DNA from: Eledone cirrhosa
Taxonomy: Eukaryota
Assembly: GCA_964016885.1 (NCBI GenBank)
Contig: OZ024764.1
Span: forward strand, 4,216,001 to 4,280,000
DNA length: 64,000 nucleotides
Direction of reading: 5' to 3'
Below, one piece after another: positions 31,465-59,283 of this stretch. The notes under the pieces were generated by a model. The model was not told the origin of the DNA and did no database searches. It was given only the letters and a program-made list of their open reading frames with translations. The stretch's first letter is position 1; every line of letters starts with the position of its first letter. A program made the translations under genes and the position numbers.

Positions 31465-31518
<54 letters not shown>

Positions 31519-31523
31519 CATAC

Positions 31524-31554
<31 letters not shown>

Positions 31555-31649
31555 CATATACATACACGTGTGTGTATATATACATATATATATATACATA
31601 TACATACACGTGTGTGTGTTTATATATATATATATATATATACACACAC

Positions 31650-31857: not shown

Positions 31858-31881
31858 ATATATATATATATATACATACAC

Positions 31882-31914
<33 letters not shown>

Positions 31915-33490: not shown

Positions 33491-33499
33491 CACCATTGC

Positions 33500-35008: not shown

Positions 35009-35096
35009 TAAATAATATCAAAATCTCATAGATTCGATATTATATGAGATAATTGTGTGAGATAAAGCCTTTTCTGTGAAAATATAATAGTATCTA

Positions 35097-35960
35097 TCAA
35101 TCTAGGGCGGGTAAAATTCCCGAGATCCATGGACAAGTTCTCTCCAGCGGTCTCTGTCTCTCATCATTACTGCCATGTCCTGCGTCTCCAAGAGGCCAGT
35201 GTCTGTCCTTAGGGCATCGACATATATCAATACGGGTCTCTATCTTTGAGTGTGTCCATGTAGGGGCTCCCACAGGAACACTGAGTGCAATGTCAACTCT
35301 GGTTGTCAGTGAACATGTCCAGCTAACCTCAGTCTCCCTCTTCCAGTGTGTCCATGTAGAGGTTCCCACAGGAACACTGAGTGCAATGTCAACTCTGGAT
35401 GTTGGTGAGCATGTCCAGTTAACCTCAGTCTCCTCTGTGTCACTTTTGAGCTGACTTTTGGGAGGCTCCCGTACAGCTCTGAGTCCTTCATCCCCAGTGT
35501 ATACTGATTAATGTTCAGAGCCATCCTCAGCATTCTCGTGTAGCACCCATCCACCATCTGAGTGAGTTTCTTGGTCAGTGTCCAAGTCTCAGACCCGTAC
35601 AGCAGCACAGACTCCACTACAGCAACGAAGTGATGGATCTTCAGGTCTTTACGAAGGTCTGACTTCCACACCGATCTCAAGCTGTGGCACGCCGCCCAGG
35701 CTTTGCTCTTCTTCTCAACCACATCATCTTCTGTATTCCCAATCTTCGCTCCCAGATACAAGAAGTCCTCAACCAATTCTAGCGGCTCCCCGCCTCCATT
35801 AGTAATCTTCTCTGGCTTCTTAATATTCTCTACCAGATACTTTGTCTTAATCTCATTCATTCTCAGCCCCACACTCATCGACACAGTCTCAACCTCCTGC
35901 ATCAAATCCTCTGACGTCTTCATTGTATTTGTCACCAAAACTATGTCATCGGCTAATTCA
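35097..35960 (-). pseudogene. RTE-clade LINE RT C-terminal fragment (second subfamily) with a 96-bp internal tandem duplication
   Basis: ADDIV...GLRMNEIKTK...FLYLGA...AWAACHSLRSVWKS...LLYGSETWTL...YTRMLRMALNI...RRLRLTGH. Duplicated block starts at 35250 and 35346. Confidence 0.9.
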
Positions 35961-35987
35961 GCATCCGATATTGTTTAATATAGAATA

Positions 35988-36170
35988 ATTGTTTCTGCTT
36001 GTGCCACAAAGCCAGCAATTACCCCAGTGCATAACTGGTGCTTTATTTTATTGACCTCATAAAGATGAAAGGCAAAGTTAACCTCAGTGGGATTTGAAAT
36101 CAGAACACAAAGGGCCATAACTCTATGCTGGAAAACATGGCGTCTGACACTCCACTTATACTGCCAATTT
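35988..36170 (-). mobile_element. Diverged SINE family A
   Basis: GATGAAAGGCAAAGTTAACCTC..GGGATTTGAA motif. Confidence 0.8.
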
Positions 36171-36249
36171 TCCCCCCATTGTATAAATACTAAAGGGTTA
36201 AGCCTTTCTAAATGTCATCACACACAGAACATTGTGGATGGCCAGAGTT

Positions 36250-38130
36250 CTCTCACATCTTTCTGTTCAAACCGGCTGTAACTGACTGCTCATACTGATG
36301 TTAAGGTATTGTTCTCAAAATATACAACATCAAAATCTCATAGATTCGATATTATGTGAGGTAAAGCTTTTACTGTGAAAATATAATAGTATATATAGAG
36401 TAATGTAAATGTTATGTGAGGTATTATGTGAGGTAAAGCCTTTACTGTGAAAATACAATAGTATATATAGAGTAGTGTAAATGTTATGTGAGGTATTATG
36501 TGAGGTAAAGCCTTTACTGTGAAAATACAATAGTATATATAGAGTAATGTAAATGTTATGTGAGATATTATGTGAGGTAAAGCTTTTACTGTGAAAATAC
36601 AATAGTATATATAGAGTAATGTAAATGTTATGTGAGATATTATGTGAGGTAAAGCCTTTACTGTGAAAATACAATAGTATATATAGAGTAATGTAAATGT
36701 TATGTGAGATATTATGTGAGGTAAAGCCTTTACTGTGAAAATACAATAGTATATATAGTGTAATGTAAATGTTATGTGAGATATTATGTGAGGTAAAGCC
36801 TTTACTGTGAAAATACAATAGTATATATAGAGTAGTGTAAATGTTATGTGAGGTATTATGTGAGGTAAAGCCTTTACTGTGAAAATACAATAGTATATAT
36901 AGAGTAATGTAAATGTTATGTGAGATATTATGTGAGGTAAAGCTTTTACTGTGAAAATACAATAGTATATATAGAGTAATGTAAATGTTATGTGAGATAT
37001 TATGTGAGGTAAAGCCTTTACTGTGAAAATACAATAGTATATATAGAGTAATGTAAATGTTATGTGAGATATTATGTGCGGTAAAGCCTTTACTGTGAAA
37101 ATACAATAGTATATATAGTGTAATGTAAATGTTATGTGAGATATTATGTGAGGTAAAGCCTTTACTGTGAAAATACAATAGTATATATAGAGTAATGTAA
37201 ATGTTATGTGAGATATTATGTGAGGTAAAGACTTTACTGTGACAATACAATAGTATATATAGAGTAATGTAGATGTTATGTGAGATATTATGTGAGGTAA
37301 AGACTTTACTGTGAAAATACAATAGTATATATAGAGTAATGTAGATGTTATGTGAGATATTATGTGAGGTAAAGCCTTTACTGTGAAAATACAATAGTAT
37401 ATATAGAGTAATGTAAATGTTATGTGAGATATTATGTGAGGTAAAGGCTTTACTGTGAAAATACAATAGTATATATAGAGTAATGTAGATGTTATGTGAG
37501 GTAAAGACTTTACTGTGACAATACAATAGTATATATAGAGTAATGTAAATGTTATGTGAGATATTATGTGAGGTAAAGCCTTTACTGTGAAAATACAATA
37601 GTATATATAGAGTAATGTAAATATTATGTGAGGTAAAGCCTTTACTGTGACAATACAATAGTATATATAGAGTAATGTAGATGTTATGTGAGATATTATG
37701 TGAGGTAAAGCCTTTACTGTGACAATACAATAGTATATATAGAGTAATGTAGATGTTATGTGAGATATTATGTGAGGTAAAGACTTTACTGTGACAATAC
37801 AATAGTATATATAGAGTAATGTAAATGTTATGTGAGATATTATGTGAGGTAAAGCCTTTACTGTGACAATACAATAGTATATATAGAGTAATGTAGATGT
37901 TATGTGAGATATTATGTGAGGTAAAGCCTTTACTGTGACAATACAATAGTATATATAGAGTAATGTAGATTTTATGTGAGATATTATGTGAGGTAAAGCC
38001 TTTACTGTGACAATACAATAGTATATATAGAGTAATGTAAATGTTATGTGAGGTATTATGTGAGGTTAAGCCTTTACTGTGACAATACAATAGTATATAT
38101 AGAGTAATGTAAATGTTATGTGAGGTAAAG
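36250..38130 (-). repeat. 72-bp tandem array (about 25 copies) with MITE body flank; inverted relative to 19940-21290
   Basis: Same unit on the opposite strand. 36250-36345 is the reverse-complement homolog of 21160-21245. Confidence 0.92.
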
Positions 38131-38233
38131 TCTCAGCTGAAATTGACTCAACAATTGATCTCCACGTGGGTCTGTCGTTCATTGCCGTTGCCAAGTCCTG
38201 GATTTCAATACCAGAATCTCTGGAGATGACATC

Positions 38234-39303
38234 GGGATAGGAGAGCTTGTGGCCCCTGTTATTAGTGACTGTTTGTGTTTTCTATAGCATTAATGGGGAC
38301 ACAGCCTCAGAGGTGGCACGATGGCAGTGACCAGCAAATTGGGATAGGAGAGCTTGTGGCCCCTGTTATTAGTGACTACTTGTGGAATCCAAAGTACTAA
38401 TGGGGACACAGCCTCAGAGGTGGCACGATGGCAGTGGCCAGCAAATCAGGATAGGAGAGCTTGTGGCCCCTGTTATTAGTGACTGCTTGTGGTTTCTAGA
38501 GCACTAATGGGGACACAGCCTCAGAGGTGGCACGATGGCAGTGGCCAGCAAATTGGGATAGGAGAGCTTGTGGCCCCTGTTATTAGTGACTGTTTGTGGT
38601 TTCTGAAGCCCTAATGGGGACACAGCCCTAGAGGTGGCACGATGGCAGTGGCCAGCAAATTGGGATAGGAGAGCTTGTGGCCCCTGTTATTAGTGACTGC
38701 TTGTGGTTTCTGAAGCCCTAATGGGGACACAGCCCTAGAGGTGGCACGATGGCAGTGGCCAGCAAATTGGGATAGGAGAGCTTGTGGCCCCTGTTATTAG
38801 TGACTGCTTGTGGTTTCTGAAGCCCTAATGGGGACACAGCCCTAGAGGTGGCACGATGGCAGTGGCCAGCAAATTGGGATAGGAGAGCTTGTGGCCCCTG
38901 TTATTAGTGACTACTTGTGGAATCCAAAGTACTAATGGGGACACAGCCTCAGAGGTGGCACGATGGCAGTGGCCAGCAAATCAGGATAGGAGAGCTTGTG
39001 GCCCCTGTTATTAGTGACTGCTTGTGGTTTCTAGAGCACTAATGGGGACACAGCCTCAGAGGTGGCACGATGGCAGTGGCCAGCAAATTGGGATAGGAGA
39101 GCTTGTGGCCCCTGTTATTAGTGACTACTTGTGGAATCCAAAGTACTAATGGGGACACAGCCTCAGAGGTGGCACGATGGCAGTGGCCAGCAAATCAGGA
39201 TAGGAGAGCTTGTGGCCCCTGTTATTAGTGACTGCTTGTCGAATCCAAAGCACTAATGGGGACACAGCCTCAGAGGTGGCACGATGGCAGGGGCCAGCAA
39301 ATC
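38234..39303. repeat. 107-bp tandem array (about 10 copies) of LINE coding sequence
   Basis: GGATAGGAGAGCTTGTGGCCCC at about 38235, 38342, 38449 and onward. Confidence 0.95.
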
Positions 39304-39403
39304 TTACTCTCCTCTTACGACAGATATGTGTGGGAGGCCGGCATATATCTCTCTCAAAGTCTGATGTCACCAGCTTTTGTTCTGAATGTGCTGAAGCAGG
39401 CGA

Positions 39404-42400
39404 GTGTAGGTGTCATCAAGGTAGTAGTAGTAATAGTGGTAGCAGTAGTAGTAGTAGTGTAGGTGCCATGAAGGTAGTAGTAGTAGTGTAGGTGCCATCA
39501 AGGTGGTAGCAGTAGTAGTAGTAGTGTAGGTGGCATCAAGGTGGTAGCAGTAGTAGTAGTAGTGTAGGTGCCATCAAGGTGGTAGCAGTAGTAGTAGTAG
39601 TAGTAGTGTAGGTGACATCAAGGTAGTAGTAGTAATAGTGGTAGCAGTAGTAGTAGTAGTGTAGGTGCCATGAAGGTAGTAGTAGTAGTGTAGGTGCCAT
39701 CAAGGTAGTAGTGGTAGTAGTAGTAGTAGTAGTGTAGGTGACATCAAGGTGGTAGTGGTAGTAGTAGTAGTAGTAGTAGTGTAGGTGACATCAAGGTAGT
39801 AGTGGTAGTAGTAGTAGTGTAGGTGTCATCAAGGTAGTAGTAGTAGTAGTAGTAGTGTAGGTGCCATCAAGGTAGTAGTGGTAGTAGTAGTAGTAGTGTA
39901 GGTGCCATCAAGGTAGTAGTAGTAGCAGTAGTAGTAGTGTAGGTGCCATCAAGGTAGTAGTAGTAGCAGTAGTAGTAGTGTAAGTGCCATCAAGGTAGTA
40001 GTAGTAGTAGTAGTAGTGTAGGTGCCATCAAGGTAGTAGTGGTAGTAGTAGTAGTAGTGTAGGTGCCATCAAGGTGGTAGTAGTAGTAGTAGTAGTGTAG
40101 GTGCCATCAAGGTAGTAGTAGTAGTAGTAGTAGTGTAGGTGACATCAAGGTAGTAGTAGTAGTAGTAGTAGTGTAGGTGCCATCAAGGTAGTAGTAGCAG
40201 TAGTAGTAGTGTAGGTGCCATCAAGGTAGTAGTAGTAGCAGTAGTAGTAGTGTAGGTGCCATCAAGGTAGTAGTAGTAGTAGTAGTAGCAGTAGTGTAGG
40301 TGCCATCAAGGTAGTAGTAGTAGTAGTAGTAGTAGTGTAAGTGCCATCAAGGTAGTAGTAGTAGTAGTAGTAGTGTAGGTGCCATCAAGGTAGTAGTGGT
40401 AGTAGTAGTAGTAGTGTAGGTGCCATCAAGGTGGTAGTAGTAGTAGTAGTAGTGTAGGTGCCATCAAGGTAGTAGTAGTAGTAGTAGTAGTGTAGGTGAC
40501 ATCAAGGTAGTAGTAGTAGTAGTAGTAGTGTAGGTGCCATCAAGGTAGTAGTAGTAGTAGTAGTAGTAGTGTAAGTGCCATCAAGGTAGTAGTAGTAGTA
40601 GTAGTAGTGTAGGTGCCATCAAGGTAGTAGTGGTAGTAGTAGTAGTAGTGTAGGTGCCATCAAGGTGGTAGTAGTAGTAGTAGTAGTGTAGGTGCCATCA
40701 AGGTAGTAGTAGTAGTAGTAGCAGTAGTGTAGGTGCCATCAAGGTAGTAGTAGTAGTAGTAGTAGTGTAGGTGCCATCAAGGTAGTAGTAGTAGTAGTAG
40801 TGTAAGTGCCATCAAGGTAGTAGTAGTAGTAGTAGTAGTGTAGGTGCCATCAAGGTAGTAGTGGTAGTAGTAGTAGTAGTGTAGGTGCCATCAAGGTAGT
40901 AGTGGTAGTAGTAGTAGTGTAGGTGCCATCAAGGTAGTAGTAGTAGTAGCAGTAGTGTAGGTGCCATCAAGGTAGTAGTAGTAGTAGTAGTGTAGGTGCC
41001 ATCAAGGTAGTAGTAGTAGTAGCAGTAGTGTAGGTGCCATCAAGGTAGTAGTAGTAGTAGTAGTAGTGTAGGTGCCATCAAGGTAGTAGTAGTAGTAGTA
41101 GTGTAAGTGCCATCAAGGTAGTAGTAGTAGTAGTAGTAGTGTAGGTGCCATCAAGGTAGTAGTGGTAGTAGTAGTAGTAGTGTAGGTGCCATCAAGGTAG
41201 TAGTAGTAGTAGTAGTAGTGTAGGTGCCATCAAGGTAGTAGTAGTAGTAGTAGTAGTGTAGGTGCCATCAAGGTAGTAGTAGTAGTAGTAGTAGTGTAGG
41301 TGCCATCAAGGTAGTAGTAGTAGTAGTAGTAGTGTAGGTGCCATCAAGGTAGTAGTAGTGTAGGTGCCATCAAGGTAGTAGTAGTAGTAGTAGTAGTGTA
41401 GGTGCCATCAAGGTAGTAGTAGTAGTAGTAGTGTAGGTGCCATCAAGGTAGTAGTAGTAGTAGTAGTAGTGTAGGTGCCATCAAGGTAGTAGTAGTAGTA
41501 GTAGTAGTAGTGTAGGTGCCATCAAGGTAGTAGTAGTAGTAGTAGTAGTGTAGGTGCCATCAAGGTAGTAGTAGTAGTAGTAGTAGTAGTGTAGGTGCCA
41601 TCAAGGTAGTAGTAGTGTAGGTGCCATCAAGGTAGTAGTAGTAGTAGTAGTAGTGTAGGTGCCATCAAGGTAGTAGTAGTAGTAGTAGTGTAGGTGCCAT
41701 CAAGGTAGTAGTAGTAGTAGTAGTAGTGTAGGTGCCATCAAGGTAGTAGTAGTAGTAGTAGTAGTAGTGTAGGTGCCATCAAGGTAGTAGTAGTAGTAGT
41801 AGCAGTAGTGTAGGTGCCATCAAGGTAGTAGTAGTAGTAGCAGTAGTGTAGGTGCCATCAAGGTAGTAGTAGTAGTAGTAGTAGTGTAGGTGCCATCAAG
41901 GTAGTAGTAGTAGTAGTAGTGTAAGTGCCATCAAGGTAGTAGTAGTAGTAGTAGTAGTGTAGGTGCCATCAAGGTAGTAGTGGTAGTAGTAGTAGTAGTG
42001 TAGGTGCCATCAAGGTAGTAGTGGTAGTAGTAGTAGTAGTGTAGGTGCCATCAAGGTAGTAGTAGTAGTAGTAGTAGTGTAGGTGCCATCAAGGTAGTAG
42101 TAGTAGTAGTAGTAGTAGTGTAGGTGCCATCAAGGTAGTAGTAGTAGTAGTAGTAGTGTAGGTGCCATCAAGGTAGTAGTAGTGTAGGTGCCATCAAGGT
42201 AGTAGTAGTAGTAGTAGTGTAGGTGCCATCAAGGTAGTAGTAGTAGTAGTAGTAGTGTAGGTGCCATCAAGGTAGTAGTAGTAGTAGTAGTAGTAGTGTA
42301 GGTGCCATCAAGGTAGTAGTAGTAGTAGTAGTAGTGTAGGTGCCATCAAGGTAGTAGTAGTAGTAGTAGTAGTAGTGTAGGTGCCATCAAGGTAGTAGTA

Positions 42401-45400
42401 GTAGTAGTAGTAGTGTAGGTGCCATCAAGGTAGTAGTAGTGGTAGTAGTAGTAGTGTAGGTGCCATCAAGGTAGTAGTAGTAGTAGTAGTGTAGGTGCCA
42501 TCAAGGTAGTAGTAGTAGTAGTAGTAGTGTAGGTGCCATCAAGGTAGTAGTAGTAGTAGTAGTAGTAGTGTAGGTGCCATCAAGGTAGTAGTAGTAGTAG
42601 TAGTAGTGTAGGTGCCATCAAGGTAGTAGTAGTGGTAGTAGTAGTAGTGTAGGTGCCATCAAGGTAGTAGTAGTAGTAGTAGTGTAGGTGCCATCAAGGT
42701 AGTAGTAGTAGTAGTAGTAGTGTAGGTGCCATCAAGGTAGTAGTAGTAGTAGTAGTGTAGGTGCCATCAAGGTAGTAGTAGTAGTAGTAGTAGTGTAGGT
42801 GCCATCAAGGTAGTAGTAGTAGTAGTAGTAGTGTAGGTGCCATCAAGGTAGTAGTAGTAGTAGTAGTGTAGGTGCCATCAAGGTAGTAGTAGTAGTAGTA
42901 GTAGTGTAGGTGCCATCAAGGTAGTAGTAGTAGTAGTAGTAGTAGTGTAGGTGCCATCAAGGTAGTAGTAGTAGTAGTAGTAGTGTAGGTGCCATCAAGG
43001 TAGTAGTAGTAGTAGTAGTAGTAGTGTAGGTGCCATCAAGGTAGTAGTAGTAGTAGTAGTAGTAGTGTAGGTGCCATCAAGGTAGTAGTAGTAGTAGTAG
43101 TAGTGTAGGTGCCATCAAGGTAGTAGTAGTAGTAGTAGTAGTAGTGTAGGTGCCATCAAGGTAGTAGTAGTAGTAGTAGTGTAGGTGCCATCAAGGTAGT
43201 AGTAGTGGTAGTAGTAGTAGTGTAGGTGCCATCAAGGTAGTAGTAGTAGTAGTAGTAGTGTAGGTGCCATCAAGGTAGTAGTAGTAGTAGTAGTAGTGTA
43301 GGTGCCATCAAGGTAGTAGTAGTAGTAGTAGTAGTGTAGGTGCCATCAAGGTAGTAGTAGTAGTAGTAGTAGTGTAGGTGCCATCAAGGTAGTAGTAGTA
43401 GTAGTAGTGTAGGTGCCATCAAGGTAGTAGTAGTAGTAGTAGTAGTGTAGGTGCCATCAAGGTAGTAGTAGTAGTAGTAGTAGTAGTGTAGGTGCCATCA
43501 AGGTAGTAGTAGTAGTAGTAGTAGTGTAGGTGCCATCAAGGTAGTAGTAGTGGTAGTAGTAGTAGTGTAGGTGCCATCAAGGTAGTAGTAGTAGTAGTAG
43601 TAGTGTAGGTGCCATCAAGGTAGTAGTAGTAGTAGTAGTAGTAGTGTAGGTGCCATCAAGGTAGTAGTAGTAGTAGTAGTAGTGTAGGTGCCATCAAGGT
43701 AGTAGTAGTGGTAGTAGTAGTAGTGTAGGTGCCATCAAGGTAGTAGTAGTAGTAGTAGTAGTGTAGGTGCCATCAAGGTAGTAGTAGTAGTAGTGTAGGT
43801 GCCATCAAGGTAGTAGTAGTAGTAGTAGTAGTAGTGTAGGTGCCATCAAGGTAGTAGTAGTAGTAGTAGTAGTGTAGGTGCCATCAAGGTAGTAGTAGTG
43901 GTAGTAGTAGTAGTGTAGGTGCCATCAAGGTAGTAGTAGTAGTAGTAGTAGTGTAGGTGCCATCAAGGTAGTAGTAGTAGTAGTAGTAGTGTAGGTGCCA
44001 TCAAGGTAGTAGTAGTAGTAGTAGTAGTGTAGGTGCCATCAAGGTAGTAGTAGTAGTAGTAGTAGTGTAGGTGCCATCAAGGTAGTAGTAGTAGTAGTAG
44101 TGTAGGTGCCATCAAGGTAGTAGTAGTAGTAGTAGTAGTGTAGGTGCCATCAAGGTAGTAGTAGTAGTAGTAGTAGTAGTGTAGGTGCCATCAAGGTAGT
44201 AGTAGTAGTAGTAGTAGTGTAGGTGCCATCAAGGTAGTAGTAGTAGTAGTAGTAGTGTAGGTGCCATCAAGGTAGTAGTAGTAGTAGTAGTAGTGTAGGT
44301 GCCATCAAGGTAGTAGTAGTAGTAGTAGTGTAGGTGCCATCAAGGTAGTAGTAGTAGTAGTAGTAGTGTAGGTGCCATCAAGGTAGTAGTAGTAGTAGTA
44401 GTAGTAGTGTAGGTGCCATCAAGGTAGTAGTAGTAGTAGTAGTAGTGTAGGTGCCATCAAGGTAGTAGTAGTAGTAGTAGTAGTGTAGGTGCCATCAAGG
44501 TAGTAGTAGTAGTAGTAGTAGTAGTGTAGGTGCCATCAAGGTAGTAGTAGTAGTAGTAGTAGTGTAGGTGCCATCAAGGTAGTAGTAGTAGTAGTAGTAG
44601 TAGTGTAGGTGCCATCAAGGTAGTAGTAGTAGTAGTAGTAGTGTAGGTGCCATCAAGGTAGTAGTAGTGGTAGTAGTAGTAGTGTAGGTGCCATCAAGGT
44701 AGTAGTAGTAGTAGTAGTGTAGGTGCCATCAAGGTAGTAGTAGTAGTAGTAGTAGTAGTGTAGGTGCCATCAAGGTAGTAGTAGTAGTAGTAGTAGTGTA
44801 GGTGCCATCAAGGTAGTAGTAGTAGTAGTAGTAGTAGTGTAGGTGCCATCAAGGTAGTAGTGGTAGTAGTAGTAGTGTAGGTGCCATCAAGGTAGTAGTA
44901 GTAGTGTAGGTGCCATCAAGGTAGTAGTAGTAGTAGTAGTAGTGTAGGTGCCATCAAGGTAGTAGTAGTAGTAGTAGTAGTGTAGGTGCCATCAAGGTAG
45001 TAGTAGTAGTAGTAGTAGTGTAGGTGCCATCAAGGTAGTAGTAGTAGTAGTAGTGTAGGTGCCATCAAGGTAGTAGTAGTAGTAGTAGTAGTGTAGGTGC
45101 CATCAAGGTAGTAGTAGTAGTAGTAGCAGTAGTGTAGGTGCCATCAAGGTAGTAGTGGTAGTAGTAGTAGTAGTAGTGTAGGTGCCATCAAGGTAGTAGT
45201 AGTAGTAGTAGTAGTGTAGGTGCCATCAAGGTAGTAGTAGTAGTAGTAGCAGTAGTGTAGGTGCCATCAAGGTAGTAGTAGTAGTAGTAGTAGTGTAGGT
45301 GCCATCAAGGTAGTAGTGGTAGTAGTAGTAGTAGTAGTGTAGGTGCCATCAAGGTAGTAGTAGTAGTAGTAGTAGTGTAGGTGCCATCAAGGTAGTAGTA

Positions 45401-47886
45401 GTAGTAGTAGCAGTAGTGTAGGTGCCATCAAGGTAGTAGTAGTAGTAGCAGTAGTGTAGGTGCCATCAAGGTAGTAGTGGTAGTAGTAGTAGTAGTAGTG
45501 TAGGTGCCATCAAGGTAGTAGTAGTAGTAGTAGTAGTAGTAGTGTAGGTGCCATCAAGGTAGTAGTGGTAGTAGTAGTAGTAGTAGTGTAGGTGCCATCA
45601 AGGTAGTAGTAGTAGTAGTAGTAGTGTAGGTGCCATCAAGGTAGTAGTAGTAGTAGTAGCAGTAGTGTAGGTGCCATCAAGGTAGTAGTAGTAGTAGTAG
45701 TGTAGGTGCCATCAAGGTAGTAGTAGTAGTAGTAGTAGTGTAGGGTGCCATCAAGGTAGTAGTAGTAGTAGTAGTAGTGTAGGTGCCATCAAGGTAGTAG
45801 TAGTAGTAGTAGTAGTAGTGTAGGTGCCATCAAGGTAGTAGTAGTAGTAGTGTAGGTGCCATCAAGGTAGTAGTAGTAGTAGTAGTAGTGTAGGTGCCAT
45901 CAAGGTAGTACTAGTAGTAGTAGTAGTAGTGTAGGTGCCATCAAGGTAGTAGTAGTAGTAGTAGTAGTGTAGGTGCCATCAAGGTAGTAGTAGTAGTAGT
46001 AGTAGTGTAGGTGCCATCAAGGTAGTAGTGGTAGTAGTAGCAGTAGTGTAGGTGCCATCAAGGTAGTAGTAGTAGTAGTAGTGTAGGTGCCATCAAGGTA
46101 GTAGTAGCAGTAGTAGTAGTGTAGGTGCCATCAAGGTAGTAGTAGTAGTAGTGTAGGTGCCATCAAGGTAGTAGTAGTAGTGTAGGTGCCATCAAGGTAG
46201 TAGTAGTAGTAGTAGCAGTAGTGTAGGTGCCTTCAAGGTAGTAGTGGTAGTAGTAGTAGTGTAGGTGCCATCAAGGTAGTAGTAGTAGTAGTAGCAGTAG
46301 TGTAGGTGCCATCAAGGTAGTAGTAGTAGTAGTAGTAGTGTAGGTGCCATCATGGTAGTAGTAGTAGTAGTAGTAGTGTAGGGTGCCATCAAGGTAGTAG
46401 TAGTAGTAGTAGTAGTGTAGGTGCCATCAAGGTAGTAGTAGTAGTAGTAGTAGTAGTGTAGGTGCCATCAAGGTAGTAGTAGTAGTAGTAGTAGTGTAGG
46501 TGCCATCATGGTAGTAGTAGTAGTAGTAGTAGTGTAGGGTGCCATCAAGGTAGTAGTAGTAGTAGTAGTAGTGTAGGTGCCATCAAGGTAGTAGTAGTAG
46601 TAGTAGTAGTAGTGTAGGTGCCATCAAGGTAGTAGTAGTAGTAGTAGTAGTGTAGGTGCCATCAAGGTAGTAGTAGTAGTAGTAGTAGTAGTGTAGGTGC
46701 CATCAAGGTAGTAGTAGTAGTAGTAGCAGTAGTGTAGGTGACATCAAGGTAGTAGTGGTAGTAGTGTAGGTGCCATCAAGGTAGTAGTAGTACTAGTAGC
46801 AGTAGTGTAGGTGCCATCAAGGTAGTAGTAGTAGTAGCAGTAGTGTAGGTGCCATCAAGGTAGTAGTAGTAGTAGTGTAGGTGCCATCAAGGTAGTAGTA
46901 GTACTAGTAGCAGTAGTGTAGGTGCCATCAAGGTAGTAGTAGTAGTAGTAGTAGTGTAGGTGCCATCAAGGTAGTAGTAGTAGTAGTAGCAGTAGTGTAG
47001 GTGCCTTCAAGGTAGTAGTGGTAGTAGTAGCAGTAGTGTAGGTGCCATCAAGGTAGTAGGGGTAGTAGCAGTAGTAGTAGTGTAGGTGCCATCAAGGTAG
47101 TAGTAGTAGTAGTAGTAGTGTAGGTGCCTTCAAGGTAGTAGTGGTAGTAGTAGTAGTAGTGTAGGTGCCATCAAGGTAGTAGTAGTAGTAGTAGCAGTAG
47201 TGTAGGTGCCTTCAAGGTAGTAGTGGTAGTAGTAGCAGTAGTGTAGGTGCCATCAAGGTAGTAGTAGTAGTAGTAGTAGTAGTGTAGGTGCCATCAAGGT
47301 AGTAGTGGTAGTAGTAGCAGTAGTGTAGGTGCCATCAAGGTAGTAGTAGTAGTAGTAGTAGTAGTGTAGGTGCCATCAAGGTAGTAGTAGTAGTAGTAGT
47401 ATAGGTGCCATCAAGGTAGTAGTAGTAGTAGCAGTAGTAGTGTAGGTGCCATCAAGGTAGTAGTAGTAGTAGCAGTAGTGTAGGTGCCATCAAGGTAGTA
47501 GTAGTAGTAGTAGTAGTAGTGTAGGTGCCATCAAGGTAGTAGTAGTAGTAGCAGTAGTGTAGGTGCCATCAAGGTAGTAGTAGTAGTAGCAGTAGTGTAG
47601 GTGCCATCAAGGTAGTAGTAGTAGTAGTAGTAGTGTAGGTGCCATCAAGGTAGTAGTGGTAGTAGTAGTAGTAGTGTAGGTGCCATCAAGGTAGTAGTAG
47701 TAGTAGTAGTAGTGTAGGTGCCATCAAGGTAGTAGTAGTAGTAGTAGTAGTAGTGTAGGTGCCATCAAGGTAGTAGTAGTAGTAGTAGTAGTAGTGTAGG
47801 TGCCATCAAGGTAGTAGTAGTAGTAGTAGTAGTGTAGGTGCCATCAAGGTGGTAGTAGTAGTAGCAGTAGTGTAGTTGCCATCAAG

Positions 47887-47931
<45 letters not shown>

Positions 47932-50576
47932 TAGGTGCCATCAAGGTAGTAGTAGTAGTAGTAGTAGTAGTGTAGGTGCCATCAAGGTAGTAGTAGTAGT
48001 AGTAGTAGTAGTGTAGGTGCCATCAAGGTAGTAGTAGTAGTAGTAGTAGTGTAGGTGCCATCAAGGTAGTAGTAGTAGTAGTAGCAGTAGTGTAGGTGCC
48101 ATCAAGGTAGTAGTAGTAGTAGTAGTAGTGTAGGTGCCATCAAGGTAGTAGTGGTAGTAGTAGTAGTGTAGGTGCCATCAAGGTAGTAGTGGTAGTAGTA
48201 GTAGTAGTAGTGTAGGTGCCATCAAGGTAGTAGTAGTAGTAGCAGTAGTGTAGGTGCCATCAAGGTAGTAGTAGTAGTAGTAGTAGTGTAGGTGCCATCA
48301 AGGTAGTAGTAGTAGTAGTAGTAGTGTAGGTGCCATCAAGGTAGTAGTGGTAGTAGTAGTAGCAGTAGTGTAGGTGCCATCAAGGTAGTAGTAGTAGTAG
48401 TAGTAGTGTAGGTGCCATCAAGGTAGTAGTAGTAGTAGTAGTAGTGTAGGTGCCATCAAGGTAGTAGTAGTAGTAGTAGCAGTAGTGTAGGTGCCATCAA
48501 GGTAGTAGTAGTAGTAGTAGTAGTGTAGGTGCCATCAAGGTAGTAGTAGTAGTAGTAGCAGCAGTAGTGTAGGTGCCATCAAGGTAGTAGTAGTAGTAGC
48601 AGTAGTGTAGGTGCCATCAAGGTAGTAGTAGTAGTAGTAGTAGTGTAGGTGACATCAAGGTAGTAGTAGTAGTAGTAGCAGCAGTAGTGTAGGTGCCATC
48701 AAGGTAGTAGTAGTAGTAGCAGTAGTGTAGGTGCCATCAAGGTAGTAGTAGTAGTAGTAGCAGTAGTGTAGGTGCCATCAAGGTAGTAGTAGTAGTAGTA
48801 GTAGTGTAGGTGCCATCAAGGTAGTAGTAGTAGTAGTAGCAGCAGTAGTGTAGGTGCCATCAAGGTAGTAGTAGTAGTAGCAGTAGTGTAGGTGCCATCA
48901 AGGTAGTAGTAGTAGTAGTAGCAGTAGTGTAGGTGCCATCAAGGTAGTAGTAGTAGTAGTAGTAGTGTAGGTGCCATCAAGGTAGTAGTAGTAGTAGTAG
49001 CAGTAGTGTAGGTGCCATCAAGGTAGTAGTAGTAGTAGCAGTAGTGTAGGTGCCATCAAGGTAGTAGTAGTAGTAGTAGTAGTGTAGGTGACATCAAGGT
49101 AGTAGTAGTAGTAGTAGCAGCAGTAGTGTAGGTGCCATCAAGGTAGTAGTAGTAGTAGCAGTAGTGTAGGTGCCATCAAGGTAGTAGTAGTAGTAGTAGC
49201 AGTAGTGTAGGTGCCATCAAGGTAGTAGTAGTAGTAGTAGTAGCAGTAGTGTAGGTGCCATCAAGGTAGTAGTAGTAGTAGTAGTAGCAGTAGTGTAGGT
49301 GCCATCAAGGTAGTAGTAGTAGTAGTAGCAGTAGTGTAGGTGCCATCAAGGTAGTAGTAGTAGTAGTAGTAGTAGTGTAGGTGCCATCAAGGAAGTAGTA
49401 GTAGTAGTGTAGGTGCCATCAAGGTAGTAGTAGTAGTAGTAGCAGCAGTAGTGTAGGTGCCATCAAGGTGGTAGTAGTAGTAGTAGTAGTAGTGTAGGTG
49501 CCATCAAGGAAGTAGTAGTAGTAGTGTAGGTGCCATCAAGGTAGTAGTAGTAGTAGTAGTAGTAGTGTAGGTGCCATCAAGGAAGTAGTAGTAGTAGTGT
49601 AGGTGCCATCAAGGTAGTAGTAGTAGTAGTAGTAGTAGTGTAGGTGCCATCAAGGTAGTAGTAGTAGTAGTAGTAGCAGTAGTGTAGGTGCCATCAAGGA
49701 AGTAGTAGTAGTAGTAGTAGTAGTAGTGTAGGTGCCATCAAGGTAGTAGTAGTAGTAGTAGTAGCAGTAGTGTAGGTGCCATCAAGGTAGTAGTAGTAGT
49801 AGCAGTAGTGTAGGTGCCATCAAGGTAGTAGTAGTAGTAGTAGTAGCAGCAGTAGTGTAGGTGCCATCAAGGTAGTAGTAGTAGTAGTGTAGGTGCCATC
49901 AAGGTAGTAGTAGTAGCAGTAGTAGTAGTGTAGGTGCCATCAAGGTGGTAGTAGTAGTAGTAGCAGTAGTGTAGGTGCCATCAAGGTAGTAGTAGTAGTA
50001 GTAGTAGTGTAGGTGCCATCAAGGTAGTAGTAGTAGTAGTAGTAGTGTAGGTGCCATCAAGGTGGTAGTAGTAGTAGTAGTAGTGTAGGTGCCATCAAGG
50101 TGGTAGTAGTAGTAGTAGTAGTGTAGGTGCCATCAAGGTGGTAGTAGTAGTAGTAGTAGTGTAGGTGACATCAAGGTAGTAGTAGTAGCAGTAGTAGTAG
50201 TGTAGGTGCCATCAAGGTAGTAGTAGTAGTAGTAGTAGTGTAGGTGCCATCAAGGTAGTAGTAGTAGTAGCAGTAGTGTAGGTGCCATCAAGGTAGTAGT
50301 AGTAGTAGCAGTAGTAGTGTAGGTGCCATCAAGGTAGTAGTAGTAGTAGTAGTAGTAGTGTAGGTGCCATCAAGGTGGTAGTAGTGGTAGTAGTAGTAGT
50401 GTAGGTGCCATCAAGGTAGTAGTAGTAGTAGTAGTAGTGTAGGTGCCATCAAGGTAGTAGTAGTAGTAGTAGTAGTAGTGTAGGTGCCATCAAGGTAGTA
50501 GTAGTAGTAGTAGTAGTAGTGTAGGTGCCATCAAGGTAGTAGTAGTAGTAGTAGTAGTAGTGTAGGTGCCATCAAG

Positions 50577-50621
<45 letters not shown>

Positions 50622-51921
50622 TAGGTGCCATCAAGGTAGTAGTAGTAGTAGTAGTAGTAGTGTAGGTGCCATCAAGGTAGTAGTAGTAGTAGTAGTAGTA
50701 GTGTAGGTGCCATCAAGGTAGTAGTAGTAGTAGTAGTAGTAGTGTAGGTGCCATCAAGGTAGTAGTAGTAGTAGTAGTAGTAGTGTAGGTGCCATCAAGG
50801 TAGTAGTAGTAGTAGTAGTAGTAGTGTAGGTGCCATCAAGGTGGTAGTAGTAGTAGTAGTAGTAGTGTAGGTGCCATCAAGGTAGTAGTAGTAGTAGTAG
50901 TAGTGTAGGTGCCATCAAGGTAGTAGTAGTAGTAGTAGTAGTAGTGTAGGTGCCATCAAGGTAGTAGTAGTAGTAGTAGTAGTGTAGGTGCCATCAAGGT
51001 AGTAGTAGTAGTAGTAGTGTAGGTGCCATCAAGGTAGTAGTAGTAGTAGTGTAGGTGCCATCAAGGTAGTAGTAGTAGTAGTGTAGGTGCCATCAAGGTG
51101 GTAGTAGTAGTAGTAGTAGCAGTAGTGTAGGTGCCATCAAGGTAGTAGTAGTAGTAGTGTAGGTGCCATCAAGGTAGTAGTAGTAGTAGTAGCAGTAGTG
51201 TAGGTGCCATCAAGGTAGTAGTAGTAGTAGCAGTAGTGTAGGTGCCATCAAGGTAGTAGTAGTAGTAGCAGTAGTGTAGGTGCCATCAAGGTAGTAGTAG
51301 TAGTAGTAGCAGTAGTGTAGGTGCCATCAAGGTAGTAGTAGTAGTAGCAGTAGTGTAGGTGCCATCAAGGTAGTAGTAGTAGTAGTAGCAGTAGTGTAGG
51401 TGCCATCAAGGTAGTAGTAGTAGTAGTAGTAGTGTAGGTGCCATCAAGGTAGTAGTAGTAGTAGTGTAGGTGCCATCAAGGTAGTAGTAGTAGTAGTAGT
51501 AGTAGTGTAGGTGCCATCAAGGTGGTAGTAGTAGTAGTAGTAGCAGTAGTGTAGGTGCCATCAAGGTAGTAGTAGTAGTAGTAGCAGTAGTGTAGGTGCC
51601 ATCAAGGTAGTAGTAGTAGTAGTAGTAGCAGTAGTGTAGGTGCCATCAAGGTAGTAGTAGTAGTAGTAGTAGTAGTGTAGGTGCCATCAAGGTGTAGTAG
51701 TAGTAGTAGCAGTAGTGTAGGTGCCATCAAGGTGGTAGTAGTAGTAGTAGTAGTGTAGGTGCCATCAAGGTAGTAGTAGTAGTAGTAGTAGTAGTGTAGG
51801 TGCCATCAAGGTGGTAGTAGTAGTAGCAGTAGTGTAGGTGCCATCAAGGTAGTAGTAGTAGTAGTAGTAGTGTAGGTGCCATCAAGGTGGTAGTAGTAGT
51901 AGCAGTAGTGTAGTTGCCATC

Positions 51922-51965
<44 letters not shown>

Positions 51966-54689
51966 TAGGTGCCATCAAGGTAGTAGTAGTAGTAGTAGTA
52001 GTAGTGTAGGTGCCATCAAGGTAGTAGTAGTAGTAGTAGTAGTAGTGTAGGTGCCATCAAGGTAGTAGTAGTAGTAGTAGTAGTGTAGGTGCCATCAAGG
52101 TAGTAGTAGTAGTAGTAGCAGTAGTGTAGGTGCCATCAAGGTAGTAGTAGTAGTAGTAGTAGTGTAGGTGCCATCAAGGTAGTAGTGGTAGTAGTAGTAG
52201 TGTAGGTGCCATCAAGGTAGTAGTGGTAGTAGTAGTAGTAGTAGTGTAGGTGCCATCAAGGTAGTAGTAGTAGTAGCAGTAGTGTAGGTGCCATCAAGGT
52301 AGTAGTAGTAGTAGTAGTAGTGTAGGTGCCATCAAGGTAGTAGTAGTAGTAGTAGTAGTGTAGGTGCCATCAAGGTAGTAGTGGTAGTAGTAGTAGCAGT
52401 AGTGTAGGTGCCATCAAGGTAGTAGTAGTAGTAGTAGTAGTGTAGGTGCCATCAAGGTAGTAGTAGTAGTAGTAGTAGTGTAGGTGCCATCAAGGTAGTA
52501 GTAGTAGTAGTAGCAGTAGTGTAGGTGCCATCAAGGTAGTAGTAGTAGTAGTAGTAGTGTAGGTGCCATCAAGGTAGTAGTAGTAGTAGTAGCAGCAGTA
52601 GTGTAGGTGCCATCAAGGTAGTAGTAGTAGTAGCAGTAGTGTAGGTGCCATCAAGGTAGTAGTAGTAGTAGTAGTAGTGTAGGTGACATCAAGGTAGTAG
52701 TAGTAGTAGTAGCAGCAGTAGTGTAGGTGCCATCAAGGTAGTAGTAGTAGTAGCAGTAGTGTAGGTGCCATCAAGGTAGTAGTAGTAGTAGTAGCAGTAG
52801 TGTAGGTGCCATCAAGGTAGTAGTAGTAGTAGTAGTAGTGTAGGTGCCATCAAGGTAGTAGTAGTAGTAGTAGCAGTAGTGTAGGTGCCATCAAGGTAGT
52901 AGTAGTAGTAGTAGTAGTGTAGGTGCCATCAAGGTAGTAGTAGTAGTAGTAGCAGCAGTAGTGTAGGTGCCATCAAGGTAGTAGTAGTAGTAGCAGTAGT
53001 GTAGGTGCCATCAAGGTAGTAGTAGTAGTAGTAGCAGTAGTGTAGGTGCCATCAAGGTAGTAGTAGTAGTAGTAGTAGTGTAGGTGCCATCAAGGTAGTA
53101 GTAGTAGTAGTAGCAGTAGTGTAGGTGCCATCAAGGTAGTAGTAGTAGTAGCAGTAGTGTAGGTGCCATCAAGGTAGTAGTAGTAGTAGTAGTAGTGTAG
53201 GTGACATCAAGGTAGTAGTAGTAGTAGTAGCAGCAGTAGTGTAGGTGCCATCAAGGTAGTAGTAGTAGTAGCAGTAGTGTAGGTGCCATCAAGGTAGTAG
53301 TAGTAGTAGTAGCAGTAGTGTAGGTGCCATCAAGGTAGTAGTAGTAGTAGTAGTAGCAGTAGTGTAGGTGCCATCAAGGTAGTAGTAGTAGTAGTAGTAG
53401 CAGTAGTGTAGGTGCCATCAAGGTAGTAGTAGTAGTAGTAGCAGTAGTGTAGGTGCCATCAAGGTAGTAGTAGTAGTAGTAGTAGTAGTGTAGGTGCCAT
53501 CAAGGAAGTAGTAGTAGTAGTGTAGGTGCCATCAAGGTAGTAGTAGTAGTAGTAGCAGCAGTAGTGTAGGTGCCATCAAGGTGGTAGTAGTAGTAGTAGT
53601 AGTAGTGTAGGTGCCATCAAGGAAGTAGTAGTAGTAGTGTAGGTGCCATCAAGGTAGTAGTAGTAGTAGTAGTAGTAGTGTAGGTGCCATCAAGGAAGTA
53701 GTAGTAGTAGTGTAGGTGCCATCAAGGTAGTAGTAGTAGTAGTAGTAGTAGTGTAGGTGCCATCAAGGTAGTAGTAGTAGTAGTAGTAGCAGTAGTGTAG
53801 GTGCCATCAAGGAAGTAGTAGTAGTAGTAGTAGTAGTAGTGTAGGTGCCATCAAGGTAGTAGTAGTAGTAGTAGTAGCAGTAGTGTAGGTGCCATCAAGG
53901 TAGTAGTAGTAGTAGCAGTAGTGTAGGTGCCATCAAGGTAGTAGTAGTAGTAGTAGTAGCAGCAGTAGTGTAGGTGCCATCAAGGTAGTAGTAGTAGTAG
54001 TGTAGGTGCCATCAAGGTAGTAGTAGTAGCAGTAGTAGTAGTGTAGGTGCCATCAAGGTGGTAGTAGTAGTAGTAGCAGTAGTGTAGGTGCCATCAAGGT
54101 AGTAGTAGTAGTAGTAGTAGTGTAGGTGCCATCAAGGTAGTAGTAGTAGTAGTAGTAGTGTAGGTGCCATCAAGGTGGTAGTAGTAGTAGTAGTAGTGTA
54201 GGTGCCATCAAGGTGGTAGTAGTAGTAGTAGTAGTGTAGGTGCCATCAAGGTGGTAGTAGTAGTAGTAGTAGTGTAGGTGACATCAAGGTAGTAGTAGTA
54301 GCAGTAGTAGTAGTGTAGGTGCCATCAAGGTAGTAGTAGTAGTAGTAGTAGTGTAGGTGCCATCAAGGTAGTAGTAGTAGTAGCAGTAGTGTAGGTGCCA
54401 TCAAGGTAGTAGTAGTAGTAGCAGTAGTAGTGTAGGTGCCATCAAGGTAGTAGTAGTAGTAGTAGTAGTAGTGTAGGTGCCATCAAGGTGGTAGTAGTGG
54501 TAGTAGTAGTAGTGTAGGTGCCATCAAGGTAGTAGTAGTAGTAGTAGTAGTGTAGGTGCCATCAAGGTAGTAGTAGTAGTAGTAGTAGTAGTGTAGGTGC
54601 CATCAAGGTAGTAGTAGTAGTAGTAGTAGTAGTGTAGGTGCCATCAAGGTAGTAGTAGTAGTAGTAGTAGTAGTGTAGGTGCCATCAAG

Positions 54690-54734
<45 letters not shown>

Positions 54735-57700
54735 TAGGTGCCATCAAGGTAGTAGTAGTAGTAGTAGTAGTAGTGTAGGTGCCATCAAGGTAGTAGTAGT
54801 AGTAGTAGTAGTAGTGTAGGTGCCATCAAGGTAGTAGTAGTAGTAGTAGTAGTAGTGTAGGTGCCATCAAGGTAGTAGTAGTAGTAGTAGTAGTAGTGTA
54901 GGTGCCATCAAGGTAGTAGTAGTAGTAGTAGTAGTAGTGTAGGTGCCATCAAGGTGGTAGTAGTAGTAGTAGTAGTAGTGTAGGTGCCATCAAGGTAGTA
55001 GTAGTAGTAGTAGTAGTGTAGGTGCCATCAAGGTAGTAGTAGTAGTAGTAGTAGTAGTGTAGGTGCCATCAAGGTAGTAGTAGTAGTAGTAGTAGTGTAG
55101 GTGCCATCAAGGTAGTAGTAGTAGTAGTAGTGTAGGTGCCATCAAGGTAGTAGTAGTAGTAGTGTAGGTGCCATCAAGGTAGTAGTAGTAGTAGTGTAGG
55201 TGCCATCAAGGTGGTAGTAGTAGTAGTAGTAGCAGTAGTGTAGGTGCCATCAAGGTAGTAGTAGTAGTAGTGTAGGTGCCATCAAGGTAGTAGTAGTAGT
55301 AGTAGCAGTAGTGTAGGTGCCATCAAGGTAGTAGTAGTAGTAGCAGTAGTGTAGGTGCCATCAAGGTAGTAGTAGTAGTAGCAGTAGTGTAGGTGCCATC
55401 AAGGTAGTAGTAGTAGTAGTAGCAGTAGTGTAGGTGCCATCAAGGTAGTAGTAGTAGTAGCAGTAGTGTAGGTGCCATCAAGGTAGTAGTAGTAGTAGTA
55501 GCAGTAGTGTAGGTGCCATCAAGGTAGTAGTAGTAGTAGTAGTAGTGTAGGTGCCATCAAGGTAGTAGTAGTAGTAGTGTAGGTGCCATCAAGGTAGTAG
55601 TAGTAGTAGTAGTAGTAGTGTAGGTGCCATCAAGGTGGTAGTAGTAGTAGTAGTAGCAGTAGTGTAGGTGCCATCAAGGTAGTAGTAGTAGTAGTAGCAG
55701 TAGTGTAGGTGCCATCAAGGTAGTAGTAGTAGTAGTAGTAGCAGTAGTGTAGGTGCCATCAAGGTAGTAGTAGTAGTAGTAGTAGTAGTGTAGGTGCCAT
55801 CAAGGTGGTAGTAGTAGTAGTAGCAGTAGTGTAGGTGCCATCAAGGTGGTAGTAGTAGTAGTAGTAGTGTAGGTGCCATCAAGGTAGTAGTAGTAGTAGT
55901 AGTAGTAGTGTAGGTGCCATCAAGGTGGTAGTAGTAGTAGTAGCAGTAGTGTAGGTGCCATCAAGGTGGTAGTAGCAGTAGTAGTAGTGTAGGTGCCATC
56001 AAGGTAGTAGTAGTAGTAGTAGTAGTAGTGTAGGTGCCATCAAGGTGGTAGTAGTAGTAGCAGTAGTGTAGGTGCCATCAAGGTAGTAGTAGTAGTAGTA
56101 GTAGTAGTGTAGGTGCCATCAAGGTGGTAGTAGTAGTAGTAGTAGTGTAGGTGCCATCAAGGTAGTAGTAGTAGTAGTAGTAGCAGTAGTGTAGGTGCCA
56201 TCAAGGTAGTAGTAGTAGTAGTAGCAGTAGTGTAGGTGCCATCAAGGTAGTAGTAGTAGTAGTAGTAGCAGTAGTGTAGGTGCCATCAAGGTAGTAGTAG
56301 TAGTAGTAGTAGTAGTGTAGGTGCCATCAAGGTGGTAGTAGTAGTAGTAGCAGTAGTGTAGGTGCCATCAAGGTAGTAGTAGTAGTAGTAGTAGTAGTGT
56401 AGGTGCCATCAAGGTAGTAGTAGTAGTAGCAGTAGTGTAGGTGCCATCAAGGTAGTAGTAGTAGTAGTAGTAGTGTAGGTGCCATCAAGGTAGTAGTAGT
56501 AGTAGTAGTAGCAGTAGTGTAGGTGCCATCAAGGTAGTAGTAGTAGTAGTAGCAGTAGTGTAGGTGCCATCAAGGTAGTAGTAGTAGTAGTAGCAGTAGT
56601 GTAGGTGCCATCAAGGTAGTAGTAGTAGTAGCAGTAGTGTAGGTGCCATCAAGGTAGTAGTAGTAGCAGTAGTAGTAGTGTAGGTGCCATCAAGGTAGTA
56701 GTAGTAGTAGTAGTAGTAGTGTAGGTGCCATCAAGGTGGTAGTAGTAGTAGTAGTAGTGTAGGTGCCATCAAGGTAGTAGTAGTAGTAGTAGTAGTAGTG
56801 TAGGTGCCATCAAGGTGGTAGTAGTAGTAGTAGTAGTGTAGGTGCCATCAAGGTAGTAGTAGTAGTAGTAGTAGCAGTGTAGGTGCCATCAAGGTAGTAG
56901 TAGTAGTAGTAGCAGTAGTGTAGGTGCCATCAAGGTAGTAGTAGTAGTAGTAGCAGTAGTGTAGGTGCCATCAAGGTAGTAGTAGTAGTAGTAGCAGTAG
57001 TGTAGGTGCCATCAAGGTAGTAGTAGTAGTAGTAGTAGCAGTAGTGTAGGTGCCATCAAGGTAGTAGTAGTAGTAGTAGTAGTAGTGTAGGTGCCATCAA
57101 GGTAGTAGTAGTAGTAGTAGTAGCAGTAGTGTAGGTGCCATCAAGGTAGTAGTAGTAGTAGTAGTAGTAGTGTAGGTGCCATCAAGGTAGTAGTAGTAGT
57201 AGTGTAGGTGCCATCAAGGTAGTAGTAGTAGTAGCAGTAGTGTAGGTGCCATCAAGGTAGTAGTAGTAGTAGTAGCAGTAGTGTAGGTGCCATCAAGGTA
57301 GTAGTAGTAGTAGTAGTAGCAGTAGTGTAGGTGCCATCAAGGTAGTAGTAGTAGTAGTAGTAGTAGTGTAGGTGCCATCAAGGTAGTAGTAGTAGTGTAG
57401 GTGCCATCAAGGTGGTAGTAGTAGTAGTAGTAGTGTAGGTGCCATCAAGGTAGTAGTAGTAGTAGTAGTGGTAGTGTAGGGTGCCATCAAGGTAGTAGTA
57501 GTAGTAGCAGTAGTGTAGGTGCCATCAAGGTAGTAGTAGTAGTAGTAGTAGTAGTGTAGGTGCCATCAAGGTAGTAGTAGTAGTAGTAGCAGCAGTAGTG
57601 TAGGTGCCATCAAGGTGGTAGTGGTAGTAGCAGTAGTGTAGGTGCCATCAAGGTAGTAGTGGTAGTAGTAGTAGTGTAGGTGCCATCAAGGTAGTAGTAG

Positions 57701-58470
57701 TAGTAGCAGTAGTGTAGGTGCCATCAAGGTAGTAGTAGTAGTAGTGTAGGTGCCATCAAGGTAGTAGTAGCAGTAGTGTAGGTGCCATCAAGGTAGTAGT
57801 AGTAGTAGTAGTAGTGTAGGGTGCCATCAAGGTAGTAGTAGTAGTAGTAGTAGTAGTGTAGGTGCCATCAAGGTGGTAGTAGTAGTAGTAGTAGTAGTGT
57901 AGGTGCCATCAAGGTAGTAGTAGTAGTAGTAGTAGTGTAGGTGCCATCAAGGTAGTAGTAGTAGTAGTAGTAGTGTAGGTGCCATCAAGGTAGTAGTAGT
58001 AGTAGTAGTAGTAGTGTAAGTGCCATCAAGGTAGTAGTAGTAGTAGTAGTGGTAGTGTAGTGTGCCATCAAGGTAGTAGTAGTAGTAGTAGTGGTAGTGT
58101 AGGTGCCATCAAGGTAGTAGTAGTAGCAGTAGTGTAGGTGCCATCAAGGTGGTAGTAGTAGTAGCAGTAGTGTAGGTGCCATCAAGGTAGTAGTAGTAGT
58201 AGCAGTAGTGTAGGTGCCATCAAGGTAGTAGTAGTAGTAGTTGTGGTAGTAGTAGTAGTGTAAGTGCCATCAAGGTAGTAGTAGTAGTAGTAGTAGTGTA
58301 AGTGCCATCAAGGTAGTAGTAGTAGTAGTAGTGGTAGTGTAGGGTGCCATCAAGGTAGTAGTAGTAGTAGTAGTGGTAGTGTAGGGTGCCATCAAGGTAG
58401 TAGTAGTAGCAGTAGTGTAGGTGCCATCAAGGTGGTAGTAGTAGTAGCAGTAGTGTAGGTGCCATCAAGG
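39404..58470. repeat. 19-kb minisatellite: GTGTAGGTGCCATCAAG + (GTA)n, roughly 500 units
   Basis: Near-invariant 17-mer separated by about 3-14 GTA triplets (mode about 7) with GCA/GTG variants. Unit number estimated from length. Confidence 0.97.
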
Positions 58471-58656
58471 TGCTTTTGTTGTCTGGATGAAAGCGTCCAT
58501 GTTTCACTTCCATATAGCAAGATAGGTTGAATTGTGACTTGGAAGAGTCTGATCTTGGTGTGGTTGGAAAGCAATCAACGGCAGTGATTTCAAGCAAGTC
58601 GAGGATTTCAAGTATCTTGGGGTCTGAGAAGGATTTTGCCACCAGAAAGGTCCAAG

Positions 58657-59283
58657 CATGGTCAGCTTGCAACAAGATGGATCGAGTTTTGTGCCCTGTA
58701 CTTCAGTACAATAGTTAATCTGACACAGAGTTGTGATGACATTACTAACTGACACTTCTAACTTTCTATCTAGGTCTCCCTCTAGTTTATTGCTACAGCT
58801 TTACTAAACCTTATCAATTCTGCTCTAACAGCCCTGATGAATCAGGGCAAACCCATGGTCAGCTTGCAACAAGATGGATCGAGTTTGGCGCCCTGTACTT
58901 CAGTACAATAGTTAATCTGACACAGAGTTGTGATGACATTACTAACTGACACTTCTAACTTTCTATCTAGGTCTCCCTCTAGTTTATTGATACAGCTTTA
59001 CTAAACCTTATCAATTCTGCTCTAACAGCCCTGACGAATCAGGGCAAACCCATGGTCAGCTTGCAACAAGATGCATCGAGTTTGGCGCCCTGTACTTCAG
59101 TACAATAGTTAATCTGACACAGAGTTGTGATGACATTACTAACTGACACTTCTAACTTTCTATCTAGGTCTCCCTCTAGTTTATTGCTACAGCTTTACTA
59201 AACCTTATCAATTCTGCTCTAACAGCCCTGATGAATCAGGGCAAACCCATGGTCAGCTTGCAACAAGATGGATCGAGTTTGGC
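58657..59283. repeat. 197-bp tandem repeat, 3 copies plus a terminal partial
   Basis: CATGGTCAGCTTGCAACAAGATG at 58657, 58854, 59051 and 59248. Confidence 0.95.

Follow-up and report, generated by a model that had tools for sequence, protein, structure and literature searches.

We analysed a 64-kb stretch of the Eledone cirrhosa genome (contig OZ024764.1, positions 4,216,001 to 4,280,000; hereafter the window, with coordinates counted from its first base), in which the coding region of a long interspersed nuclear element (LINE) is interrupted by a minisatellite. A preliminary description of the sequence had reported an array of a 17-mer plus a trinucleotide run inside a LINE reading frame, and our analysis confirmed this. 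The exact 17-mer GTGTAGGTGCCATCAAG had 442 matches on the plus strand of the window and none on the minus strand. Tandem Repeats Finder (TRF) returned 484.5 copies of period 38 at 39403-58472, and parsing of this 19.07-kb, minus-strand array gave 485 units of CCTTGATGGCACCTACA + (CTA)n (LINE sense) in 67 types, mostly 38 and 41 bp long and arranged in regional variant blocks. The interval first assigned to the minisatellite (38131-58574) is wider than the array itself, since it also takes in the LINE flanks and a separate 107-bp array. A block of about 4 kb occurs twice almost exactly within 47889-55807 (51923-55807 matches 47889-51694, with 2,974 and 954 bp identical), so part of the array length may be owed to a duplication that is either very recent or a product of the assembly.

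Read on the minus strand, the LINE frame runs into the array at 58471 (...QQKHLDGTYT) and out of it at 39402 (...TYTRLLQHIQ), so the LINE leads into the array and resumes after it as originally noted. Frame reading and homolog alignment placed the open reading frame (ORF) directly upstream of the array (LSNHTK...QQKH) at 58471-58571 and its continuation (TRLLQHIQ...) at 39303-39402, both on the minus strand. Residues 806-842 of homolog P0001 aligned at 58571-58461 and residues 847-875 at 39399-39316, showing that the joined flanks are colinear with one LINE family. The core is present at both ends of the array, the duplicated core being 17-19 bp, and the unit consists of LINE coding sequence that was duplicated on either side of a run of (ACT)n. 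A reverse transcriptase domain was detected in LINE copy L084 (RVT_1, E 4.9e-12). Close homologs of the LINE are 1,017-1,061 amino acids long and carry PF03372 or PF14529 together with PF00078, that is, an apurinic/apyrimidinic (AP) endonuclease and a reverse transcriptase in a single ORF; residues 9-1004 of P0007 span 2.9 kb of LINE copy L146. The host LINE has the architecture we looked for in an RTE element (a single ORF of ~1,000-1,100 amino acids with both domains, in an element of ~3.2-4 kb) and a short tandem-repeat 3' tail, (GAT)n. An RTE-like host fits the reverse transcriptase, the single-ORF homologs bearing an AP endonuclease and the (GAT)n tail; the homologs bear no clade names, and the label, which is based on architecture, is presumptive.

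The same insert with the same breakpoints was recovered elsewhere in the 3.0-Gb genome. Pattern searches returned 26 filled 3' junctions, 34 filled 5' junctions and 2,028 internal units, together with 62 strict empty sites, or 274 with one mismatch allowed. After merging, and once L010 and L017 had been excluded as broken at the site, the set comprised 51 filled loci, which form 25 regional clusters on 16 chromosomes, and 68 empty copies; three further filled 5' junctions and three strict empties lay outside the fetched set. The proposal that a single event at the window locus created the array cannot be upheld, since the insert is present in all 51 of these LINE copies. By strict patterns (34 versus more than 100), the filled share is roughly a quarter or less, and most copies are empty. 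Arrays range from two cores up to 1,789 cores over 69 kb on chromosome C28. With most copies empty and the filled ones distributed unlike the empties, the array does not qualify as a standard part of the family spread by transposition, as in Ogre-type elements. Public contigs of run X2, which may be from another species, had a depth of 22,000-38,000 over the insert compared to at most about 15,600 in the flanks. In run X1, the ACT junction was poorly covered, and the loose ends among the matches listed were all of the empty type; contigs cannot show absence, and we made no use of this result.

Several individual arrays had features of their own. The C28 array (G000:C28:119383554-119452769; L140, L148-L150 and L159-L161) holds its 1,789 cores with no gap above 300 bp, and at its 5' end it adjoins a sequence other than the usual LINE flank. 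A SINE-like (short interspersed nuclear element) insertion lies inside the array at L022 (C1:433.35 Mb), with array sequence duplicated on both sides, and the spacer at L110 (C6:98.86 Mb) has grown to more than 1 kb of (ACT)n, interrupted at regular intervals by AAC.

Nearly all arrays lie close to chromosome ends or on small chromosomes. On C1-C7, the distance to a chromosome end exceeds 30 Mb for 38 of 50 empty copies but for one of 11 filled copies (p=6e-5; 0.005 after collapsing clusters). A second minisatellite of the host LINE, with a 107-bp unit, likewise avoids the interiors of large chromosomes. Its duplication was present in 16 of 46 distal filled copies, five of 43 distal empty copies and none of 19 interior copies, and the first 100 of 362 junction matches in contig order start at distal C6, with none on C1-C5. 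The 107-bp junction was found in both runs X1 and X2, either of which may be another species; on L103:1634-1736, the 107-bp LINE-derived repeat was strongly amplified in both. Recombination is reported to rise toward chromosome tips in two octopus species (PMC13669787).

The first and last cores of the filled loci, 35 of 43 of which could be scored, shared no mutation and had 36 private ones (one C/T dimorphic position was excluded, and loci within clusters are not independent). Because none of the 36 mutations is shared, the duplication is as old as the LINE copies. The states of the dimorphic position in first and last cores were CC at 21 loci, CT at six, TT at six and TC at two. Core positions 9 and 13 behaved differently from each other: one, a non-CpG position, is C/T at ~50:50 in empties and variable within local clusters, and the other was mutated in 14 of 35 last cores versus one of 35 first cores. 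Filled and empty copies are equally diverged at non-CpG sites (4.5% for distal filled versus 4.8-4.9% for empty copies). A search for units with zero or one ACT and for plain 17-22-bp duplications found none; its validity was supported by the recovery of six units with two ACT, all within longer arrays. The terminal spacer ends in ACC(ACT)2 at 15 of 50 loci, on 10 chromosomes, versus five occurrences at all other offsets. A synonymous flank variant 64 bp upstream was present in seven of 20 filled clusters and none of 43 empties (p=1.4e-4, the best of 37 tests, with one carrier near the alignment edge). An ancestral CpG was seen among loose empties, and the presumed birth site is bounded by CGCCT repeats. 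One old origin of the seed, meaning core + (ACT)n + core, is favoured but not proven.

We also compared rare alleles between copies. Sharing was 10.7% for pairs less than 1 Mb apart (18 pairs), 9.4% at 1-3 Mb (40), 3.4% at 3-10 Mb (102), 1.5% at 10-30 Mb (111) and 2.3% beyond 30 Mb (62), and it was 1.5% between chromosomes (5,770 pairs). Pairs within 3 Mb shared rare mutations six-fold over background, in mosaic tracts and with different 5' ends and flanks. Runs of shared alleles were present in 12 of 94 near pairs versus 10 of 3,688 far pairs, and four near pairs were mosaic at p<=0.002. Copies that lie near one another differ for the most part in 5' end, tail and 3' flank, which indicates separate insertions, and 15 of the 16 pairs compared had no colinear flank homology within the 3-kb loci. 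A cluster of empties on C15 was also mosaic; six C15 empties had been hand-picked for a shared variant, and the distance decay held when recomputed without them. Some unit variants are chromosome-specific, such as a 1-bp insertion found only in three C25 arrays; another variant occurs in three C6 arrays and in three units of the large C28 array. The filled or empty state matched that of the nearest neighbour in 63 of 74 cases (p=0.001), a result on which we did not rely because empties were incompletely sampled. Mosaic identity between separately inserted copies, declining with distance, supports local transfer by what would be non-allelic gene conversion. An inter-chromosomal duplication links L051 (C4:101.46 Mb) and L072 (C27:1.0 Mb), where at least 2.1 kb with 95% identity, flank included, is present on both chromosomes.

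The window copy has about 1.9 kb in common with its paralog L002, 0.97 Mb away, the homology stopping inside a 197-bp repeat (3.2 copies, 58657-59283) and before the tail. This repeat combines an inverted LINE end with the paralog's flank, and the inverted piece of the host LINE, at the truncated 5' end (58568-58688, plus strand), is common to L002. At the opposite side, the LINE 3' end (38131-38233, minus strand) is without the (GAT)n tail and is joined to a 72-bp minisatellite. Adjacent to it lies the second LINE-derived minisatellite, ten copies of 107 bp (38234-39302, minus strand), whose breakpoint is the same in many other LINE copies. The 0.6-kb LINE fragment that holds the main array also yielded the 107-bp array and part of the 197-bp array. 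Because the homology ends inside the 197-bp repeat and before the tail, the window copy is likely a DNA-level duplicate of a ~1.9-kb fragment, between C25:3.31 and C25:4.25 Mb, and, being without tail and native flank, it is likely the derived member of the pair. L002 has three cores, which match the last block of the window array, and is missing a first-unit variant that is present in six other C25 arrays and on C27; for this reason it is likely a contracted allele, and L002 as the ancestral short allele was dropped as less parsimonious. With cores as old as the LINE copies and a tail-less, apparently derived copy in the window, the locus does not offer the complete local record of satellite birth that had been proposed.

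We favour, with a probability of roughly 55%, one old seed, non-allelic gene conversion between settled copies in distal and small-chromosome regions, and local growth. The fixed breakpoints, the series from 2 to ~1,800 units, the old cores, the positional bias and the distance-dependent mosaic sharing are its observed parts. The seed would have been born as core + (ACT)n + core at about the time the LINE family amplified, at a site flanked by the 5-bp direct repeat CGCCT and ending in a TAC-ACT proto-microsatellite. Short conversion tracts, a seed-bearing source element or both could have seeded other chromosomes, conversion would account for the local sharing, and local expansion likely proceeded by slippage and unequal exchange, in line with the established behaviour of minisatellites. 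A homing-like spread without transposition, in which conversion over megabases places the array in empty copies where recombination is high, is possible but tentative; if true, one 17-bp duplication would have seeded dozens of arrays of up to 69 kb, and the 107-bp seed would have done likewise.

Several observations weigh against the favoured reading. Only four near pairs were significantly mosaic, sharing had no peak at the array site, and local retrotransposition could explain near-identical pairs such as L109/L111. At the C/T dimorphic position of the core, eight of 35 loci were discordant, and 30 of 50 terminal spacers are without the ACC mark. Divergence is slightly lower in copies with the upstream variant (4.0% versus 4.9%, p=0.04), a better fit to a younger source element than to conversion. 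The flank tree, a quick one, is a star with 24 state changes versus 29.9 when shuffled, and it neither shows nor excludes one origin. A site-by-site test of filled and empty copies found no flank variant fixed in the filled ones, and cross-chromosome rare-allele sharing was not in excess among them (1.3% versus 1.7% for empties). The 30-Mb cut-off for interior positions was picked after the data had been seen, and the recombination gradient is taken from two octopus species.

An unlikely alternative is a frameshifted source element bearing the seed and retrotransposed in trans in the same burst, with interior copies reverted by between-core deletion, local clusters produced by local retrotransposition or duplication, and conversion minor. 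It accommodates the copies' own tails and flanks, the old cores, an upstream variant confined to filled, slightly younger copies, and target-site-like repeats at seven of 23 filled and 19 of 47 empty copies (a loose match with no chance control). However, the interior holds only one of 11 filled copies on C1-C7 compared to 38 of 50 empties, revertants should carry the upstream variant that all 43 empties lack, and mosaic tracts and sharing extend to empty neighbours. Recurrent independent birth at a sequence-encoded hotspot, by reiterative slippage of a reverse transcriptase or repair polymerase in ~25 lineages, mainly in distal chromatin, strikes us as quite doubtful. The star tree and background-level cross-chromosome sharing agree with it, as do the shorter 3' duplication or altered 5' junction at L120, L121, L126, L025 and L029 and the occurrence of filled and empty copies on one shared two-site haplotype; the lack of intermediates with zero or one ACT, the absence of mutations predating the duplication (0 of 36), and a spacer mark and upstream variant common to several chromosomes all speak against it.

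The preliminary description had also considered insertion of a trinucleotide tail with a target-site duplication. Another element, with an (AGT)n tail, could have inserted its tail alone at a preferred site, each time producing a target-site duplication of ~19 bp. This would suit the geometry, and the target end has three nucleotides in common with the run. We nevertheless consider this very improbable: no body of a second element lies beside the ACT run at the filled loci whose junctions were read, the LINE family itself ends in (GAT)n, the cores have the same age as the copies, and the best 15 matches per class in the fetched loci included no similar ACT run flanked by a unique duplication, other triplet runs with duplicated flanks being only compound microsatellites. 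Birth once at the window locus, followed by 500-fold amplification in place, deserves almost no credence; cores at both ends and colinear flanks are what it predicts, but 50 further loci are filled, the C28 array is larger and the window copy is tail-less and derived. The census refutes this reading unless all the remaining loci stem from the window locus.

The rest of the window contains further tandem repeats. A 112-bp repeat forms arrays at 481-3701 and 6342-9562 that have identical TRF scores and are displaced by 5,861 bp; this near-exact duplication is either real or assembly-made. Minisatellites of 72 bp (36348-38124 and 19957-21154), 61 bp (13902-14369 and 24474-26185), 48 bp (16414-17990) and 116 bp (18339-19568) are found again within the window or at other C25 loci (L039, L043 and L136), giving a patchwork of local copies. 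Fragments of other LINE families lie at 35138-35974, 32982-33491 and 12540-12806.

We compared the array with known systems. The Ogre-derived satellites of Lathyrus sativus (PMC7004042) are similar in having short arrays in a dispersed retrotransposon, a graded series and region-tied expansion. There, however, long terminal repeat (LTR) elements carry the arrays in the 3' untranslated region and expansion occurs in primary constrictions, whereas here the array lies in LINE coding sequence, most copies are empty and seed presence is biased to distal regions and small chromosomes. Human repeats at AluS and LTR12 hotspots (PMC3389668) also arise from transposable element (TE) sequence, may reflect a repeat of the source element and have short flanking direct repeats as one route, but the part consulted describes no inserted microsatellite spacer or conversion-borne spread. 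Conversion among Alu and Drosophila ISX/ISY copies (PMC6598467) resembles our data in mosaic diagnostic mutations, distance dependence and motif spreading over settled copies; it differs in range, Alu conversion being reported within <10 kb and sharing here extending over 1-10 Mb between copies ~9% apart, and here the cargo would be a satellite seed. The soybean Gmr9/GmOgre minisatellites (PMC3305785) are likewise embedded in a retrotransposon family, with variable copy number and suggested conversion, but they lie in a non-coding region of an LTR element and are pericentromeric. PROsat, Pvc 20 and HinfI (PMC9659126) are satellites with a monomer from LINE ORF2, no series from empty to 69 kb at a fixed base being described in the part consulted. 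RTE-linked microsatellites are known at the 3' end (Tay et al. 2010, cited in PMC9115989), whereas (ACT)n here is internal and distinct from the family's (GAT)n tail.

TE-derived tandem repeats, Ogre satellites, Gmr9 minisatellites, LINE-ORF satellites and conversion between TE copies are already known. The literature searched included no report of this family or of satellite seeds spread by conversion; subscription journals, Repbase/Dfam entries and supplements (e.g. the PMC13282606 repeat library) lay outside its scope and may hold one. Within the same scope, we did not find the features of the present case in combination, namely a seed that is internal, shifts the frame and occurs in a minority of LINE copies, a regional bias, exchange over megabases and two seeds in one element. 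We propose no function for the array. Retrotransposon-born satellites are known, yet one seldom sees how a seed turns into a dispersed family. In this genome, several hundred copies of one LINE, all of equal age, are empty, hold two cores or carry arrays of up to 69 kb at a single base, and two independent seeds have the same regional bias. Two questions can thereby be put directly to the test: whether the birth or the survival of satellites depends on the region of the chromosome, and whether satellite seeds are carried from one fixed element to another, across megabases, by gene conversion.

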